A DNA stretch of 64,000 nt. Source: TPA_inf: Saccharomyces (lineage: Eukaryota). Under the pieces are notes generated by a model that made no database searches, had not been told where the DNA came from, and saw only the letters and a list, made by a program, of their open reading frames with translations. Below are positions 9,379-44,555 of this stretch, one piece after another (within the stretch, counting starts at the first letter, position 1; each line of letters begins with the position of its first letter). A program made the position numbers and the translations under genes. Where the stretch lies: the NCBI GenBank assembly GCA_000146045.2, contig BK006943.2, positions 128,001-192,000 of the forward strand, in the 5' to 3' direction.

Positions 9379-11370
9379 ATGCCATTTCAAGATTATTTTC
9401 AGAAGAAAAAAGCAGCGTTCATTAACAGAAACAATAAAAGTAACGCAGATGCTTCAGCGCTACGAGATATTAACGATATTAACATAAATTTCGCCGCCAA
9501 GAGCAAAAACTACGTGTTCCCGCTAACAAAGCTCCCCGATGAGCTCATGCAAGAAGTATTCTCTCATTTGCCGCAACCAGACCGCTTGCAGCTTTGCCTT
9601 GTGAACAAAAGGTTGAATAAGATCGCTACCAAACTGCTTTATAGAAGAATATATTTGAACGACTCAAATGTAGTGAAGAGTGACTTCATGCATCTCGCAA
9701 TTAATTGGACCCTACTGAACTTGCCGTCTTCGTTGAAAGAAGAGGAGTCCCGCGATATCGCCAACTGCAAATTGAAAAAACTTATAGAAACACTGCAAAA
9801 TAATATTCACATTACTGAAGTCATCCAGTGGATAAGGATCAACTGGGATTTGGACTCTACCTTGCAAAGGTCCATTCTCAGCATCCTTTGCAATCAGGGC
9901 AAGTCCTTGCAAAGACTAGAAAACGTCACTGACCCGGCTTGTAACGATATCATCTCCAATGGTCACTTTTCCAGGAGCAACGTCTCAAGTTTCGACATGG
10001 CTCCTCCAAATTCATTGCCTGAGATGGTTGTTCCCGAAAATTACATTCCGAATCTCACCAAATATCTTTCACAGCGTATCTCTTCTCGGCTTTCTCATAT
10101 GACTTTATTCATCGACCCTTTAAAACTGTTCAATTATCTTTACCCTTTAGATATCAAGTTACAAATCATCGATTTAAAATTGCATTGGAGGAGGGAGTTT
10201 TACAATAATGATTATTTTGTTAAAAAGATACGACCCGGCAATCCTCTGACTAAACTATCGGAGGTTTTTGACAAGAGGACATTGAAAATTCTTACCATCA
10301 TTTCTTGGAATGACACTTTGTTAAAACGCGAGACAGAAATGCTGAAAGATTTTAAAGAATTTGAGAACCTGGAAGATTTGTCTTTGATTTCTATTAAGCA
10401 GGATGTTCATATCCTCGTAGATCTTTTTAGTTCGTTAACCAATTTGAAAAGACTAAAAATGGATTTCTTAGAGGAGTATGTACCTGAACCCACAAATCCT
10501 CACATATTTCTCTCCATTCTTTTAGCTTGCTCCAAATTGCAATTCATAGATCTGAGATACGACGGTCTTATCCCACAAATCATCAATATTCAAGAAAATA
10601 AGTTCCAACTAAATCAGCAATGCAACTGCACAAACTGTCAAATAGTATTCAGTGACATTCTGAAGGGCAAAATATTCATGTTCCCTGAAGACTACTATAT
10701 TCACGATCTTCAAGACATTGCTGCAAAGGATATTTTTAAAATGATGAAATACCTATCTTTGTTACCATACTCTAAAGCTTGTGATGCTTATCCGAGCGTT
10801 AGAACACAACCAATGAATTTGACTAATTTTGTGACCAAGATGAACCGCAACCTTTTGGAATATAGAAATTCTAAATCCCAGTTGGTGCCCAAAATCGTTA
10901 ATAACCCACATCAACACTCCACCGTGACTTCCACATCAACCGCTCATATGAGCGAGCCCGAAATGATAATAATCGATGACGATGATGATGATGATGAAAT
11001 TAATGCGGCCATTCCTCCAAGTAGTGATGACACAGCAGCTACAATTTCCACTGACCTGGAACTTCCTCATGAATCATTGACCAAAAGAGATATTATTATG
11101 TGTTATCACGCTCTTATCCATCACTTCAAGTCGATTTACGTTACTTTTTTGAAAAGTTTTCCTCATTTGAGATTCTTGATGTTGAATGACATTCCCACAA
11201 TAGTTATGGAGGAGAATAATGAACGTATTTTTGAACCCGTCTTTTATCATTATGATTATAAGAGTAATCTGTATGGATGGTCAAAGGAATCGAACAAGAA
11301 TCTGGAGAACGACAGCAACAACAACAATAATAATTCTGATACCATTGCAAGAATAGCCACTGTTATGTAA
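9379..11370 (+). CDS. DAS1: F-box protein
   Basis: 663-aa ORF with an N-terminal F-box (LPDELMQEVFSHLPQPDRLQLCLVNKRLNKI). The length matches YJL149W. Confidence 0.85.
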   Translation: MPFQDYFQKKKAAFINRNNKSNADASALRDINDININFAAKSKNYVFPLTKLPDELMQEVFSHLPQPDRLQLCLVNKRLNKIATKLLYRRIYLNDSNVVKSDFMHLAINWTLLNLPSSLKEEESRDIANCKLKKLIETLQNNIHITEVIQWIRINWDLDSTLQRSILSILCNQGKSLQRLENVTDPACNDIISNGHFSRSNVSSFDMAPPNSLPEMVVPENYIPNLTKYLSQRISSRLSHMTLFIDPLKLFNYLYPLDIKLQIIDLKLHWRREFYNNDYFVKKIRPGNPLTKLSEVFDKRTLKILTIISWNDTLLKRETEMLKDFKEFENLEDLSLISIKQDVHILVDLFSSLTNLKRLKMDFLEEYVPEPTNPHIFLSILLACSKLQFIDLRYDGLIPQIINIQENKFQLNQQCNCTNCQIVFSDILKGKIFMFPEDYYIHDLQDIAAKDIFKMMKYLSLLPYSKACDAYPSVRTQPMNLTNFVTKMNRNLLEYRNSKSQLVPKIVNNPHQHSTVTSTSTAHMSEPEMIIIDDDDDDDEINAAIPPSSDDTAATISTDLELPHESLTKRDIIMCYHALIHHFKSIYVTFLKSFPHLRFLMLNDIPTIVMEENNERIFEPVFYHYDYKSNLYGWSKESNKNLENDSNNNNNNSDTIARIATVM

Positions 11371-11565
11371 TCAACTCCCCTTCAAATATATATATTTAAT
11401 AATATATATTCAACGCATTTTTTAAGCTAGCAGGATTCAGATTACTGGTCTACTTCATATTAAGGAAATACAAGATCCATTCGGATGCTAGAAAAAAATC
11501 AACCAACTATTCCAATGTTGGTAAGCTGGTTTGATAAAGTAAACACAAGATACTACAGTATACGA

Positions 11566-11691
11566 TCACTCAGACATCCTAGGAAGGTCTCTAAAGAAGA
11601 GCGGTCACCGAGAGTACTAACGATGGGTTCGTAAGCGTACTCCTACCGTGGAAACTGCGAATGTTAAGGAACCAGTCTTTCATCACCGTGA
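11566..11691 (-). ncRNA. SNR128: box C/D snoRNA U14 (snR128), 126 nt, essential for 18S rRNA processing
   Basis: The minus strand reads TCACGGTGATGAAAGACTGGTTCCTTAACATTCGCAGTTTCCACGG...CCTAGGATGTCTGAGTGA. Box C (UGAUGA) is at the 5' end and box D (CUGA) is near the 3' end. The termini are complementary (TCAC/GUGA). This matches my memory of yeast U14. Confidence 0.9.
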
Positions 11692-11760
11692 TCATAAATT
11701 ATATATATTATCTGTCTCCTCAAATTACCCACATTTGATAATCTCATGAGAAAAAATAAA

Positions 11761-11950
11761 GGCTCAGATCTGCATGTGTTGTATAACACTGGCAAGAAAA
11801 GTTCCCGTTTGCAAACACAAATGATTAAAAAAAAATGTCACAGAAGCAACATCTTTTCAAAATCATTCGCATTAAGAGAACGAGATAAAATCCCTTGTCG
11901 TCATGGTCGAATCGGACGAGGAAAGAAGAGACACCATTATCATCAGGGCC
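11761..11950 (-). ncRNA. SNR190: box C/D snoRNA snR190, 190 nt, sitting 69 nt upstream of U14 in the same dicistronic precursor
   Basis: The minus strand reads GGCCCUGAUGAUAAUGG...CAGAUCUGAGCC. Box C follows the 5' stem, box D (CUGA) precedes the 3' GCC, and the termini are complementary. The 69-nt spacer to U14 fits the known Rnt1-processed dicistron. Confidence 0.85.
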
Positions 11951-12248
11951 AATCAATTCTTCTTTTCTGTTTAAAAAAGTGTCATGAAATTTCTCTTGAG
12001 ATTATTCAAACTTGAATGTATCAAATGGGAAGGAGTGCAATGCTGAAGTCGAAAGAGGAGGATTACTCTCATTCTTACTACATTACAGTCACTGCTGTTT
12101 GTTCTTATGTAGGGGAATTCTTATTAACCGAATGTCGAGATTATTATAACCTTACAGAAGGTTGTCCAGTATTTATACATTTTGTTTCTGCCCATAAAGC
12201 TCTAGAAAATGAAAAAAAATTTTCTTTTCAGCCTGAGAAAGTTTTTTC

Positions 12249-12254
12249 TTAGGG
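12249..12254. promoter_or_regulatory. Tbf1-type TTAGGG motif in the divergent snR190-U14 / RPA34 intergenic region
   Basis: TTAGGG at 12249..12254 and TAGGGT at 12352..12357. Tbf1 sites are characteristic of yeast snoRNA promoters. Confidence 0.35.
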
Positions 12255-12312
12255 CAGCGTGTGGTTATTGGGTGTTGCGAAACTTTTTTTCTCAAACATG
12301 AAATTAAAGAAA

Positions 12313-12332
12313 TGAAAAATTTTATCGATGAG
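12313..12332 (+). promoter_or_regulatory. RRPE plus PAC-like ribosome-biogenesis promoter module upstream of RPA34
   Basis: TGAAAAATTTT is a perfect RRPE. It is immediately followed by ATCGATGAG, which matches the PAC motif GCGATGAG at 7 of 8 positions. The module lies about 105-125 bp upstream of the RPA34 ATG. Confidence 0.6.
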
Positions 12333-12436
12333 CATTGAATAGCTCAAGTTATAGGGTATTCGGTATCATATAGGTCTGTGATCGAGTGAGCAGTGAGCAG
12401 CTAGGATTCAATAAACGGGATTAACAAAAAATTGAT

Positions 12437-13138
12437 ATGTCCAAGCTTTCGAAAGATTACGTATCAGATTCAGACTCTGATGATGAAGTGATATCAAACG
12501 AGTTCAGCATACCAGATGGTTTCAAGAAATGTAAACATTTAAAGAATTTCCCTCTCAACGGTGATAACAAAAAAAAAGCGAAACAGCAACAGGTTTGGCT
12601 GATCAAATTCCCATCAAATGTGGACATCTCCAAGTTAAAATCTCTGCCTGTAGATTTTGAATCCTCTACAACCATGACAATTGATAAACACGATTATAAA
12701 ATCATGGACGATACAGATATTGAGTCCTCGTTAACACAGGATAACCTCAGTAATATGACTTTATTGGTTCCTTCGGAAAGTAAGGAAAGTCTTAAAATTG
12801 CTAGCACTGCCAAGGATAATGCACCATTACAGTTTGACAAGGTATTTTCTGTCAGCGAAACCGCTAAAATCCCAGCTATTGATTACAGTAAGGTAAGAGT
12901 TCCACGTAAAGATGTTCCAAAAGTAGAAGGCTTGAAGTTGGAGCATTTTGCTACTGGTTATGATGCCGAAGATTTCCATGTGGCTGAGGAAGTTAAAGAA
13001 AATAAGAAAGAACCAAAGAAGCGTTCACATCACGACGATGAAGAGGAGTCTAGTGAAAAGAAGAAAAAGAAGAAGGAGAAGAGGGAGAAGAGGGAGAAGA
13101 AGGATAAAAAGGATAAGAAAAAGAAACATAGAGATTGA
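12437..13138 (+). CDS. RPA34: RNA polymerase I subunit A34.5
   Basis: 233-aa ORF, MSKLSKDYVSDSDSDDEV..., with a lysine- and glutamate-rich C-terminal tail (KKKKKKEKREKREKKDKKDKKKKHRD). Confidence 0.9.
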   Translation: MSKLSKDYVSDSDSDDEVISNEFSIPDGFKKCKHLKNFPLNGDNKKKAKQQQVWLIKFPSNVDISKLKSLPVDFESSTTMTIDKHDYKIMDDTDIESSLTQDNLSNMTLLVPSESKESLKIASTAKDNAPLQFDKVFSVSETAKIPAIDYSKVRVPRKDVPKVEGLKLEHFATGYDAEDFHVAEEVKENKKEPKKRSHHDDEEESSEKKKKKKEKREKREKKDKKDKKKKHRD

Positions 13139-37722: not shown

Positions 37723-40700
37723 TCACATATCAACACCCATGACCATGGCCAACAAAGCCATTCTGACGAACAAACCATACTTCATTTGTCTGAAGTAAGC
37801 AGCACGATGATCGTAGTCCACTTCCTCTTTGATTTCATTTACACGAGGCAATGGATGCATGATAGCCATATTTTCTTTGGCGTGTGCCAAGATCTTGTTG
37901 TCCACGATATAAGTATCCTTCAGACGTGCATATTCTTCAGGGCTATTGAATCTTTCTTCTTGGACCCTTGTACAATACAGAACATCGGTCTTTGAGATGA
38001 TATGAGGGGTTAATTCAATGCTCTCAACACCAAGTAAGCCAGCTTTTCTTAGCTCTTCTCTTAATCCTTCTGGTAACCTCAATTCCGGAGGAGAAACAAG
38101 ATTAATTCTGACTTGATAGTGCATTAACAAACGACACAATGAATGTACGGTTCTACCATGTTTGAGATCACCCATGAAAGTAACAGTAATACCATTAACA
38201 GTACCGATTTCTTCACGAATCGTAAACAAATCCAAGAAGGCCTGCGTAGGATGCTCGCGAGAACCATTACCACCATTAATAATTGGAACAGGAGAATATT
38301 TAGCGGCGATATGAACAGACATTTCTTCTGAATGACGCATGACAATGGCATCACTGTAACAAGCCAAAGTTCTGATAGTATCTTGAAGGGTTTCACCTTT
38401 CTTGACAGAAGACACCAATGGATTAACATTTACAATTCTACCACCCAAACGTTCCATAGCAGCAATGAATGAAGAACAAGTACGAGTAGATGGTTCAAAG
38501 AAAATTGTAGTAATAACGTGGCCTTTCATTAAATCTAAGACACCTTCTCTTGCGACAGCTGCCCTTAGTTCTTGTGCAACAGCAAACAACACATGGAAAT
38601 CAGAACGTTTGAATTGTTTGATAGACAATATATGTCTTCCGCGGAATGGATTGTTACTACGGATCAAATTCTGGATGGCGCCTGGAGCAACAAGTTCTCT
38701 TGGTGGCCTTGAAGACATCAATTTTTGTTCCAAAGGCTGTTCTGGAATTGCATCCTCCGCGGCATCTAAATTATCAGCGATTGCTTCTTCCGTGATCGAG
38801 AACCTTCTTTTAGCACTAGTAGATTGGAGCTCTGCGGAAGCAGTTATGGAAGCTGGACTTGGATTAACAATGCATTTTCCTTTGGCGCCTGGTGAAACTA
38901 ATTCACCGCTCAAAACTAATGTTTCGCCATTATAGACAACACGCTCAATACCACCGTTCATATCTTTGTTGAATGGTGACCATCTCTTATTACGTCTGAA
39001 AGAATAATCCAAATCAATTTCGACAACTGAGTCCTGAGTAGGGATGTTGAAAATTTTAGCGGGATTGTCATGCAGACGAAGGACGATATCATCAATGGTT
39101 AATTTACCTTCTTCAACAGCAGCCAACAATAGTGGTAATGAATCTTTGATACCCATACCAACATCAACCTTGTTACCTGTGACATTTGCCAAGGCGACAG
39201 GAAGAGCACCGACAGAGAAAGCATCGATACTATCAAGGTTGTTCCAGAAAAACTCTTGATCTTCCTTAGTAGGCAAGAAAACTGCCTCCGGATAGTCATC
39301 TTGGGCAATAAACAAAGAATAAATATTGACATCACAAGTCACTCTAGGGTCTTTTGCCTTGACCGTCATGATCAAAGCTAAATCTTCCTTATTCGAAACA
39401 CCAGTAATGTGAATAGATCTGTTTTGAAGGGAGGTTAACAATAAAACCGATGCCAAATCTGCAGTTTTAGCTTCTGCAATCACTTGCTTTTCAGTTGGCC
39501 ACTGATTCAGAAGTTCAGCTACTGCTGTGATCTTGTTCTTTAATTCACGTAGGGGCAAAAACAATGCTGTCACTTTGCTAGCAGATTGCGTAACACTATG
39601 AGCATTGTGTGCTGTACCAGCAATAGTGAAAGAAAAGTCAGTGTAAGATGAATCTTGGGAAACAGAGTTTGCGGCCTTCAAGGATGCAACGTCAGTAATA
39701 ACAGGTCCGCTGATGGATCTGGGCATCAATTGACAGTATGTAAAACCGGATTCCAAAAATAGACGTGTGGTCTCCTTCAGTTCAGCTGGGCCTTTGATAA
39801 CATGGGATGCATTCGGAACATAAGTTGCGATATTGATTAAACCAGGTAAGGTAATAGTTCTGTGGGAAGTTTGTGCATCACGTTCAGAAACATCTAAAGT
39901 GATATTTCTTGAAATGGCTTCAATCAACAATTTTGCACATTTAACGTTAGTAACCAACGGAACCGAATAATCGACAGCCAAACGACGTGTTTTATACCCC
40001 TTTGAAACATAGGATGCAGGACGACGGAACCTGTTGGCAGAAGGCAAGTTGATGTAAAGGTCAATTTCATTATTAGCCAAATGTTGAGTAAGTGAGTATT
40101 CTGATTTTTGATCATCATCATCCTTGTTTAAAACCTCCAGATATTGGACGGCAATACCATGTTCAGATAAAAAGTCAGCAGTACCTGATGTTGCAAATAA
40201 TTTATATCCCATGTTGTATAGTTTTTGTACGGAAGAAAGCAATTCTTGTTTTTCCTTGTAAGAACCAATAGACAATAAAATATTCTTCTTTGGAAGTTTG
40301 AAGCCGGTTGCCAACAAAGACTTTAAGTATGCTTCATACTTCGAGTGGCCAAAAGTAGCGACTTCACCAGTAGAGGCCATTTCAACACCTAAGACTGGAT
40401 CAGCTCCTGCTAAACGTGGGAAAGAGAATTGTGGTACTTTAACGGCGACATAATCATCTGGTAATTTTTCAACAGGATAAGGCGTCAAAGGCAAACCCAT
40501 TATGGCCTTTGTTGCCAATTCAATCAGATTGACGCCAACAACCTTTGAAATGAATGGGAAAGATCTCGAAGCACGAACATTACATTCTATGACCTTGATT
40601 TCATTGTCCTTTGCAATGAATTGGATGTTGTATGGACCTGTAATTTTCAAAGCCTTACCAATTTTAGCAGTGGCGACAACAATTCTATCCACAGTTTCAG

Positions 40701-43700
40701 GAGCCAAATCTTGAGGTGGAACGATTAATGTTGCATCACCCGAGTGGACACCTGCATTTTCAACATGCTCAGAGACAACATGCATAACCAATTCACCATT
40801 TCTTGCAACTGCATCCATTTCAATCTCCTTTGCGTTTTCAATATATTTAGTGATAACAACAGGATAATCACGTGAAACTTCGACGGCTTGGTTTAAGTAG
40901 GATTCCAAATCGTTTTTAGAATAAACAGTATTCATGGCGGCACCGGATAACACATAAGATGGACGTACCAAAACTGGATAACCCACCTTTTCGGCAAAAG
41001 ATTCAGCTTCGTCCATGGATGTCAATTCTTTCCAAGCTGGTTGGTCAACACCAATTTGATCCAACATACGAGAGAACTTGTAACGGTTTTCAGCAGAATC
41101 AATCATGTCAGGGGATGTACCAAGAATCTTTACATTTTCACGATGTAAAGTCATGGCGATGTTGTTGGAAGTTTGACCACCCATTGATACGACAACACCG
41201 CTTGAGTTTTCAATCTCGTAAATATCCAAAACTCTTTCAAGGTTGATGGTTTCAAAGTATAGTCTATCAGCCTCATCATAATCTGTGGAAACAGTTTCTG
41301 GATTATAGTTGACCATGATAGTTTTGATATTGTTGGCACGTAATGTTCTAACTGCAGTAACAGCACACCAATCAAATTCGACAGAAGAACCGATACGGTA
41401 AACACCAGAACCCAAGACCATAACACCGTGGTCATCAAAGGATAAATCGTGTGAGTCAGCATTGTATGTCATGTATAAATAGTTCGTGTAAGCGGGGAAT
41501 TCAGCGGCAACTGTATCAATTTGTTTGACAAATGGTGTAATTCCATATTCTTTTCTTAATCTACGGATGGCAACTTCGTTGGAATCCAAAAATCTTGCAA
41601 TCTGTCTGTCATCAAAACCTAACTGCTTAGCCTGTCTTAAAACTAAGGAAGGTAATTCCTCTTTAGTACCAAATGAACTAATTTTCTCAGCAAATTGGAC
41701 CAAATCGTGCAGTTTGTTTAAAAACCACTTATCAATTCTAGTCATTTCCCAGACTTTATCAACAGAATATCCCTTCTTAGCAAAAGCATTTGCAATGGCG
41801 AAGACACGCATATCCGTAGGGTTGTTCAACTCGTAATCAATGTCGATATCTAGATCTGTCTCATTGAATCCGAGGTTAGCATATTCTGTGGATCTGATAG
41901 CTTTTTGAATAGCTTCTTCGAAGGTTCTACCGATGCTCATAACTTCACCAACAGATTTCATTGATGAAGATAATTCGGTAGAAACTCTGGTGAACTTCTT
42001 CAAATCCCATCTTGGCATTTTGACAACACAGTAGTCTAGAGAAGGTTCAAAACAAGCACATGTGGATTTTGTGACGGAATTCTTAACTTCATTTAATGGG
42101 ATATTCAAACCTAACTTAGCCGCAGTGTAGGCCAATGGGTAACCAGTAGCCTTAGAAGCTAAAGCAGAGGAACGTGACAAACGCGCATTAACTTCAATGA
42201 TGCAATAATCCTTAGAAACGGGATTTAAAGCATATTGGATATTACATTCACCAACAACACCTAAGTGTCTAATAACATTAACAGCAGTAGTTCTTAACAT
42301 ATTGTAATCTTCATCAGATAAAGTTTGAGATGGGGCTACAACGATGGAATCACCGGTGTGAATACCTAGTGGATCAAAATTTTCCATATTACAAACAGTA
42401 ATACAGTTGTCAAAAGCATCACGAACAACTTCATATTCGACTTCTTTCCAACCTTTCATAGATTTCTCGACTAAAACTTGAGGTGAGGATGAAAATGCAA
42501 CATTACATAGATCAACCAATTCTTTTTCATTATTAGCGAAACCGGAACCTAAACCTCCCAATGCATATGCAGCACGTACAATAACTGGGAAACCGATCTC
42601 CTTGACAGCGGCCAATGCCTCGTCCACTGAATTAGCAGCTTGAGATTTCGCACATTTTTCATTAATTTCGTCAATGGCATTACTGAAGAGTTCACGGTCT
42701 TCCGTGGTAATAATAGTATCGATTGGAGTACCCAATACTTTAACTCCTAACGCCTCAAATTCATCTTTCATGGCTATACCAACAGATAAAGCAGTTTGTC
42801 CACCAAATGTCACATAAATGGCGTCCGGCCTTTCATGTAAAATAACTTTTCTCACGAACTCTGCAGTAACAGGAACAAAATAAACCTTATCAGCCAACCC
42901 TTTCGAAGTTTGGATGGTAGCAATGTTTGGATTAATTAAAATTGTATAGATACCTTCTTCTTTCAAAGCTTTGATGGCTTGAGAACCAGAGTAGTCAAAT
43001 TCACCAGCTTGACCGATGGACAAACCACCAGAACCGAGAACTAGAACCTTCTTCGCTTCGATTCTAGGGTGTGCCTTAACGTTATCCTCTAATAGGCCAC
43101 CTGGGAAAGCGATTGGTTTCAACACTTGTGTATACTTGAATTCTTTAACTGCTTGGATAAAAACGTCAAACAAGAATTCTGTATCTCTTGGGCCAGGTGT
43201 GGATTCTGGATGGAATTGGACGGAAAAATAAGGTAATTCAGAATGATAGATACCTTCGTTAGAGTCATCATTCGCGTTAACAAACAATGGCTTCCATCCG
43301 GAAGTTAGAGTGTCAACATCCACAGCGAACCCATGGTTTTGAGATGTTATGTAACAACGACCACTTATAGTTGATGTACAAGGTATGTTATGACCACGGT
43401 TACCAAATTTTAGTTTTAGGGTGGATGCACCGGCAGCTCTTGCTATCAATTGATGACCGAGACAAATACCGAATACTGGCGTCTTTTTAGCCTCCAGGAC
43501 ATTTGACAATCTTTGAGATAGATCATCTAGAACAGATGGATCACCTGGACCATTTGAAATAAACAGACCATCATAATCTTCTTTAGTGAAATCGTAGTTC
43601 CATGGAACAACTTTCAATTCTACACCCCTTTTGATAAAACAACGAATTTGATTGTATTTCATACCCACGTCAATGGCTAGAATCCTTAAAACTTTACCAT

Positions 43701-44367
43701 CGGGTCCGGTTTGCAATTCGATGTGCTTATTGTCTGCTGGAGGAACGTACAATTTAGGTTCATTGATGGAGACCTTAGAAACTAGGTTTTGAACATTTGG
43801 ATCCACCCATTCAGGAACATCAAACGCACTTCTCCAAGAGGAAGATCTGGAGATGGTTCTGTCAGAGCCGCTTTTTTCCAAAGACAACCTACCCAACATT
43901 GAACCTGCATCTCTCAAATGCTTGGTCAATGATCTTGTATCAACACCATAAACAGCTGGGATCCCTTCATTTTGTAACCATTTACCTAAGGAAGATTTAG
44001 CAAGATAATGAGAGTACTCGTCGGTATAGTGAGAAATAACTAAACCGGCAATATGGATTCTATTACTTTCAAAATATCTTGGCAATTCTTCGACCAATTC
44101 ATCTCTCAAGTGCATATCTGGGACACCATAATTGCCTACCAATGGGTAAGTGATGACTAAGATCTGGCCTTCATAAGATGGATCGGTCACAGATTCAGGA
44201 TAACCAACCATACCAGTTTGGAAAACTAATTCACCAGCGACGGATTTCTCAGCACCAAATGAATAACCTTGTAAGACCGTGCCGTCCTTAAGTTCCAACG
44301 TAACCAGACGGTCACCCGTAGATTCCATTGGAGGGGTGATTGGAGCAGTGGGAGCAATAGTGGCCAT
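37723..44367 (-). CDS. URA2: multifunctional pyrimidine biosynthesis enzyme: glutamine amidotransferase, carbamoyl-phosphate synthetase and aspartate transcarbamylase
   Basis: From the ATG (complement of 44365..44367) the protein is 2214 aa, [21 protein letters not shown].... It contains a GATase domain, two CPSase ATP-grasp repeats, a degenerate DHOase-like region and a C-terminal ATCase domain (STRTR...HPLP). Confidence 0.95.
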
Positions 44368-44555
44368 ATTATGATTGTTATATTCTATTAGGTAAGGTTT
44401 ATGTGTTGTATGCTGCAATTAGTTATGGATTTCTATCGTCGTTAATATTAATGTTAGTAATTGTTGATCGTTCAAGCCAGATGCCGATATAAAATCAGAA
44501 CTAATTGAAGAGATTGATTTGCTTTCGTGCCATGAAGATCTCTATCAATTGCGAT

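Follow-up and report, generated by a model that had tools for sequence, protein, structure and literature searches.

The snR190-U14 dicistronic snoRNA unit in the DAS1-RPA34 gap of Saccharomyces cerevisiae chromosome X and its predicted leader-spacer helix for Rnt1 processing

The minus strand of the gap between DAS1 and RPA34 on chromosome X of Saccharomyces cerevisiae almost certainly carries the SNR190-SNR128 (snR190-U14) dicistronic unit, the precursor of which is processed by Rnt1 at a helix formed by the 5' leader and the spacer between the two snoRNAs. The locus and its dicistronic transcript are already known from publications, as are the processing by Rnt1 and the function of each RNA, and the preliminary description of this DNA, which considered the locus not novel, was right in that respect, since the unit is a textbook example in the literature. 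The window, i.e., the whole stretch of 64,000 nucleotides that was analysed, spans chrX 128001-192000, and all window coordinates given below are obtained by subtracting 128000 from chrX positions (Table 1). This offset is supported by the PARE 5' end at chrX 139691, which becomes 11691, the first nucleotide of U14. It also fits URA2, where the site at chrX 166308 becomes 38308 and falls within a minus-strand ORF of 2231 aa (37723..44418). The PARE table was taken as being in BED-style coordinates, a reading that is unstated in PMC13183374 and rests on the exact match to the U14 5' end. The URA2 site itself is a weak Rnt1-dependent 5' end that was seen in vivo only and was uncut in vitro (PMC13183374).

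Table 1. Features of the DAS1-RPA34 gap (window coordinates; minus-strand features are written in the direction of the RNA, except for the spacer)
Feature	Coordinates	Strand	Remarks
snR190 box C/D snoRNA (SNR190), 190 nt	11950..11761	−	RF01249, 214.2 bits (cut-off 40), E 4.2e-53
snR190 box C, UGAUGA	11945..11940 (RNA nt 6-11)	−	Located in the sequence
snR190 antisense box A, UCUUCUUUCCUCGU	11929..11916 (snR190 nt 22-35)	−	14-nt duplex with GCGGGGAAAGAAGA, two G.U pairs
Degenerate D'-like CCGA, 3' of snR190 box A	11915..11912	−	Putative D' box
snR190 box D, CUGA	11767..11764 (RNA nt 184-187)	−	Located in the sequence
snR190-U14 spacer, 69 nt	11692..11760	−	Located in the sequence; contains the Rnt1 cleavage arm
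U14/snR128 box C/D snoRNA (SNR128), 126 nt	11691..11566	−	SNORD14, RF00016, 71.2 bits (cut-off 64), E 2.2e-13
U14 box C, UGAUGA	11685..11680 (GUGAUGA at RNA nt 6-12)	−	Located in the sequence
U14 domain A, CAUUCGCAGUUUCCAC, antisense to 18S	11663..11648	−	13 contiguous Watson-Crick pairs with GAAACUGCGAAUG
U14 domain B, CCUUCCUAGGAUGU, methylation-guide element abutting box D	11587..11574	−	Complementary to ACAUCCAAGGAAGG with one A.A mismatch
U14 box D, CUGA	11573..11570 (RNA nt 119-122)	−	Located in the sequence
Leader segment CCCAUUUGAU	12029..12020	−	Predicted partner: spacer 11739..11728 (AUCAAAUGUGGG); putative third helix of a three-way junction
Leader hairpin AUUCA-AGUU-UGAAU	12017..12004	−	AGNN tetraloop AGUU at 12012..12009, closed by 5 bp
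Leader arm of the Rnt1 helix, AAUCUCAAGAGAAA	12003..11990	−	13/14 bp with 11753..11740; cut between 11993 and 11992
Spacer arm of the Rnt1 helix, UUUCUCAUGAGAUU	11753..11740	−	Cut between 11749 and 11748; 11748 pairs with nt 14 from the loop
TATAAATA, likely TATA box of the snR190-U14 unit	12177..12170	−	In a 19-nt block invariant in four species
TGCCCTAA, presumed Tbf1-type (RCCCTAA) motif	12256..12249	−	Within the invariant block CTGCCCTAAGAAAAA
ORF, 89 aa	11746..12015	+	Only ORF of at least 50 aa in the gap besides the 78-aa one
ORF, 78 aa	12016..12252	+	Same frame as the 89-aa ORF, split off by a single stop

The two snoRNA genes and their rRNA targets

The gap, measured from the DAS1 stop to the RPA34 start, occupies 11371..12436, i.e., 1066 bp. 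Both flanking proteins are exact-sequence matches of S288C DAS1 (NP_012386.1) and RPA34 (NP_012387.1), and Pfam finds in them the F-box and RNA_polI_A34 families, respectively, as expected. The locus is the same as SNR190-SNR128 of S288C (YNCJ0004C/YNCJ0003C, chrX 139566-139950): the snoRNA coordinates agree after subtraction of 128000, the flanking proteins are identical, the PARE sites lie at the positions predicted from the structure, and no difference could be detected.

A scan of the entire 64-kb window with Rfam at the gathering threshold returned two matches only, snR190 and SNORD14, each to the full model (1-111 in the case of SNORD14), with E-values that exclude chance. A permissive scan of 11000..12800 returned, beyond this pair, only sub-threshold box C/D look-alikes lying over the same two RNAs. 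The snR190 RNA reads 5'-GGCCC-UGAUGA ... CUGA-GCC-3' and the U14 RNA reads 5'-UCACG-GUGAUGA ... CUGA-GUGA-3', so that each has box C near its 5' end, box D near its 3' end and a terminal stem (GGC/GCC in snR190, UCAC/GUGA in U14) that is paired in the Rfam consensus structure line. What the preliminary description had put forward from the letters, namely a gap of 1.07 kb, two minus-strand snoRNAs with snR190 (11761..11950) upstream of U14 (11566..11691), a 69-nt spacer, and a 5' UGAUGA box, a 3' CUGA box and complementary termini in each RNA, agrees with these measurements, the Rfam coordinates being identical. It had also named the SNORD14 and snR190 models as the way to check the locus and missing matches, motifs or stems as grounds for rejecting it; both models score above threshold, and the motifs and stems are in place. 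When folded alone, snR190 is more stable than its shuffled versions (z = -3.7). The fold of U14 alone is no better than the shuffles (z = +0.67), which makes thermodynamic folding uninformative for this RNA. Of the proteins that assemble on box C/D snoRNAs (Snu13, Nop56, Nop58 and Nop1), Nop1 was shown to co-precipitate with snR190 (PMC8536666).

The antisense elements of U14 were compared with rDNA by using a pattern made of their reverse complements (AAACTGCGAATG, 300-330 nt, ACATCCNAGGAAGG), which matched at least 120 metagenomic rDNA contigs. The domain A target GAAACUGCGAAUG is present in all of the at least 120 matches listed, and the N of the pattern is A in all of the at least 120 contigs listed, which gives rise to the A·A mismatch of domain B. 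One such contig, L011, was identified by Rfam as SSU/5.8S/LSU rDNA (SSU_rRNA_eukarya), and in it the U14 targets are found at SSU positions 84-95 (domain A) and 411-424 (domain B). Thus, besides scoring above the SNORD14 gathering threshold, the RNA has both antisense domains complementary to 18S-type rRNA. The fifth nucleotide upstream of U14 box D pairs with a C, which we take to be 18S Cm414. Yeast U14 has boxes C and D as well as domains A and B, with their complementarity to 18S, in common with vertebrate and plant U14 (SNORD14). It differs from the SNORD14 model by an extra internal stem (the Y domain) that is aligned as an insertion, the score being 71 bits against the cut-off of 64, and by the A.A mismatch in domain B where the SNORD14 consensus has U. 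The nucleotide in question (11580, minus strand) is A in all four Saccharomyces species. Vertebrate U14 is intron-encoded and is not known to be dicistronic. According to the literature, mature U14 pairs with 18S rRNA by domains A and B and guides one 2'-O-methylation while being essential for 18S processing; for the requirement in 18S rRNA production, PMC5934358 cites Li et al. 1990, and PMC8536666 states it too.

The target of snR190 box A, GCGGGGAAAGAAGA, was found in the LSU rRNA of five long non-yeast metagenomic rDNA contigs, about 2360 nt into the LSU in the case of L011. This match agrees with the published box A site in helix H73, the exact yeast pairing being that given in PMC8536666. 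The RNA therefore combines a score above the RF01249 gathering threshold with a box A that is antisense to the H73 / G2395 region of LSU domain V. The second antisense element, box B, is 15 nt long and perfectly complementary to 25S domain I according to the literature; its target was found in none of at least 120 non-yeast metagenomic rDNA contigs when exact k-mers and G.U-tolerant ungapped duplexes were searched for. Like canonical guide box C/D snoRNAs, snR190 combines boxes C and D and a terminal stem with an antisense element that precedes a D'-like box. Unlike in canonical guides, however, the methylation predicted for box A, at 25S G2395, is undetected (PMC8536666), and snR190 is now considered to act through its two antisense boxes as a chaperone of 25S folding, and not as a methylation guide, in early pre-60S particles, from which it is released by Dbp7 (PMC8536666, PMC8536713). 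In the scheme taken from this literature, mature snR190 would pair with domain V of 25S rRNA by box A and with domain I by box B, as a non-essential chaperone that is freed by the helicase Dbp7.

Open reading frames on the plus strand

The preliminary description regarded the two plus-strand ORFs of 89 and 78 codons as spurious. Judged by their sequences, both are indeed, in all probability, chance open frames, because stops and frameshifts interrupt them in three sister species and Pfam finds no family in either. The orthologous stretches of S. mikatae, S. uvarum and S. kudriavzevii contain 1-5 in-frame stops each, and in 4/6 comparisons the length of the stretch cannot be divided by three. 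In the Saccharomyces alignment, conservation tracks the snoRNA and RNA-structure blocks and not a codon pattern. It might be argued that these ORFs encode real small proteins antisense to the snoRNA unit, since they do exist and are called in many public assemblies, where they form exact-sequence clusters of 47 and 18 members. The members of these clusters, however, have no meaningful names, being unnamed products of automatic gene callers, and their lengths cover 78-186 aa in one cluster and 70-78 aa in the other; taken together with the stops, the lengths indivisible by three, the lack of a Pfam family and the conserved blocks that follow RNA features, this leaves hardly any probability for real proteins. 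A 70-aa variant of the 78-aa ORF has been deposited as 'hypothetical protein GCM10010217_75570 [Streptomyces tubercidicus]' (GAA2226892.1), which suggests contamination of a bacterial assembly with yeast DNA. When a stretch of U14 of 26 nt was used as a tracer of such contamination in the representative genomes of GTDB, there were 0 matches.

A single precursor and its Rnt1 processing signal

Pol II transcribes snR190 and U14 together from a single promoter, and their precursor is processed by Rnt1 and exonucleases, for which Chanfreau et al. 1998 (EMBO J) is the source given in PMC8536666 and PMC5934358. The PARE sites of snR190/U14 are labelled 'dicistronic' in supplementary file 1 of PMC13183374. 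The preliminary description had also concluded that there is a single precursor; this conclusion is upheld by the literature and by the conserved leader-spacer helix, but the box motifs, from which it had been deduced, are not enough to show it. Box C/D motifs by themselves are no proof of co-transcription, and most yeast snoRNAs are monocistronic, both of which would suit two independent genes with promoters of their own that are neighbours by chance. Against this, the spacer is only 49-159 nt long in nine species, and the part of it that is conserved in Saccharomyces is the cleavage arm and not a promoter element. In the alignment of four Saccharomyces species, conserved TATA and Tbf1-like blocks are found upstream of snR190 only. 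A leader-spacer helix with PARE sites on both strands needs a single RNA molecule, and dicistronic precursors accumulate in rnt1-delta cells (PMC8536666, PMC5934358). Independent genes, which published Northern and PARE results have already refuted, can be given practically no credence. As far as the present analysis is concerned, the helix and the position of the promoter blocks lend indirect support to a single transcript.

In the scheme that can be drawn from the literature, Pol II would start upstream of snR190, in a promoter region that is head-to-head with RPA34, and would produce one capped precursor containing both snoRNAs. Within this region, TATAAATA is likely the TATA box of the unit, and TGCCCTAA is, we presume, a candidate Tbf1-type snoRNA promoter motif, of the kind reportedly described by Preti and colleagues in 2010. 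On the plus strand, TGAAAAATTTT followed by ATCGATGAGCA (12313..12334, with the ATG of RPA34 about 100-125 bp further downstream) presumably represents RRPE and PAC, the classic promoter pair of ribosome biogenesis genes. Among four Saccharomyces species this block shows next to no variation, the exception being one substitution in S. kudriavzevii, and it sits in the 486-bp divergent region common to RPA34 and the snR190-U14 unit. At the other end of the unit, GUAG (11556) and UCUUG (11550) are found on the minus strand within 11545..11560, at most 20 nt past the U14 3' end; they resemble what we take to be Nrd1/Nab3 binding motifs, which act in the termination of snoRNA transcription, and are conserved only in part among the sister species.

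The best ungapped duplex between the leader and the spacer has 15/16 bp and is formed by leader 12005..11990 (AUAAUCUCAAGAGAAA) and spacer 11753..11738 (UUUCUCAUGAGAUUAU). The energy of the overall leader-spacer duplex is −32.6 kcal/mol as compared to −23.4 ± 3.3 in dinucleotide shuffles, 10 of 1000 shuffles being as good. The unconstrained S. cerevisiae MFE structure prefers another leader hairpin by 0.2 kcal/mol, which is the cost of forcing the AGUU hairpin. The features of an Rnt1 substrate, an AGNN tetraloop on a double-stranded stem, are found here as the AGUU loop on 5 bp that are followed by the 13/14-bp leader-spacer helix. Rnt1 is known to cut 14 nt (5' strand) and 16 nt (3' strand) from the loop, leaving a 2-nt 3' overhang (PMC13183374). 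When counted from AGUU, the 14/16-nt rule predicts new 5' ends at 11992 (leader position -42) and 11748 (spacer nt 13). These ends, with their 2-nt 3' overhangs, coincide exactly with the published PARE sites at chrX 139992 and 139748, both of which are Rnt1-dependent in vivo and are cut by recombinant Rnt1 in vitro (PMC13183374 supplementary file 1). The site at 139748 is the major one and has weaker neighbouring ends at 139745-139747 (PMC13183374 supplementary file 1), which are consistent with trimming by a few nucleotides. Mapping of the 5' ends of an Rnt1-processed precursor, which the preliminary description had proposed as a further check, thus already exists in published form and matches the predicted cuts.

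Most Rnt1 substrates are local AGNN hairpins (PMC13183374), and the spacer is able to form a local hairpin, so that Rnt1 could in principle recognise a stem-loop within the spacer and not the long-range helix of leader and spacer. This hairpin, however, has a 7-nt loop that is not AGNN, the spacer folded alone has no significant structure (z = -1.3), and no local AGNN-capped stem is present in the MFE folds of 11400..12300. It is this combination of a weak spacer fold and the lack of a local AGNN stem that leads to the model of a long-range helix. Moreover, the two sites cut by Rnt1 in vitro flank snR190, are 244 nt apart, and fit one helix with a 2-nt stagger. A local signal in the spacer is thus very improbable, and the long-range leader-spacer helix is preferred; the Rnt1 substrate of snR190-U14 has been called 'long-range' before (PMC4334505). 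Other polycistronic units processed by Rnt1 (the snR72-78 cluster, snR67-snR53, snR43 and others) are likewise made as one Pol II transcript that is cut by Rnt1 and then trimmed by Rat1 (PMC13183374). As compared by their descriptions in the literature, these units use local AGNN stem-loops, whereas the helix that is cleaved in snR190-U14 is made of 5' leader and spacer sequences with all of snR190 between them, and the AGNN hairpin stacks on this helix.

The following order of events may be proposed for the precursor. The AGUU-capped hairpin of the 5' leader would stack on the helix of the leader and the inter-snoRNA spacer, and Rnt1 would read the tetraloop and cut both strands 14 and 16 nt away, between 11749 and 11748 and between 11993 and 11992. 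A single Rnt1 event would in this way strip off the cap-bearing leader and separate snR190 from U14. As known from the literature, Rat1/Xrn1 would then trim in the 5'-3' direction and the exosome from the 3' side, halting at the assembled box C/D core. The mature 5' ends at 11950 and 11691 are made by Rat1/Xrn1 trimming (PMC5934358).

Conservation of the unit in yeasts

Ten yeast loci, reached through RPA34 homologues, were compared by using Rfam. The arrangement of snR190 followed by U14, divergent from RPA34, is found in 8/10 genomes (S. mikatae, S. uvarum, S. kudriavzevii, K. naganishii, K. africana, E. gossypii, T. globosa and K. dobzhanskii). Three of these U14 matches score 56-62 bits, below the Rfam cut-off. 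At the RPA34 loci of N. bracarensis and O. polymorpha, neither snR190 nor U14 was found at E <= 0.01, and the pair must be elsewhere in these genomes or too diverged for detection. On the U14 side, the neighbour is the F-box gene DAS1 (9379..11370 of the window) in Saccharomyces only, and a LAS1-domain gene in Kazachstania, Eremothecium, Torulaspora and Kluyveromyces, which means that the linkage of RPA34, snR190 and U14 is older than the DAS1 neighbourhood. The H/ACA snoRNA snR42 (RF01265) was found about 1.3-1.5 kb downstream of RPA34, past TFA2, on the plus strand in E. gossypii (locus L007, 5982..6064), T. globosa (L008, 6179..6356) and K. dobzhanskii (L009, 6076..6236); it has no Rfam match in the 64-kb S. 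cerevisiae window.

In the four Saccharomyces species, a 50-nt leader block (12035..11986), the spacer arm and the promoter blocks are invariant amid diverging sequence. The leader block includes the AGUU hairpin, which is the same in all four, and the segment CCCAUUUGAU, for which the pairing with the spacer as a third helix is suggested by RNAcofold predictions for S. mikatae and S. kudriavzevii. In the more distant genera, unconstrained or near-MFE cofolds again predict an AGNN hairpin with the spacer-pairing leader stretch right after it, the loop being AGGU in K. africana and T. globosa, AGUA in E. gossypii and AGAU in K. dobzhanskii; the sequences involved differ from those of Saccharomyces. 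No comparable AGNN hairpin was found in the cofold of K. naganishii. AGNN is kept in 8/9 species, and, with the helix arms invariant within Saccharomyces, covariation comes from a few distant genera only.

One may speculate that the Rnt1 signal is a conserved three-way junction, kept with changing sequence across Saccharomycetaceae, in which the AGNN hairpin sits on a helix that can form only after snR190 and the spacer have been transcribed, and that it serves as a timing device delaying the removal of the cap and the separation of the snoRNAs until snR190 has been made and packaged. We consider this reading improbable. If it were true, the conservation across genera and the idea of a checkpoint would at most be new, the long-range substrate being already in the literature.

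The analysis of the snR190-U14 locus leaves the current understanding unchanged. Its value is that of a quality check: an annotation of the 1.07-kb gap that considers proteins only yields two meaningless ORFs and would miss the essential U14, its partner snR190 and the processing signal that they have in common.
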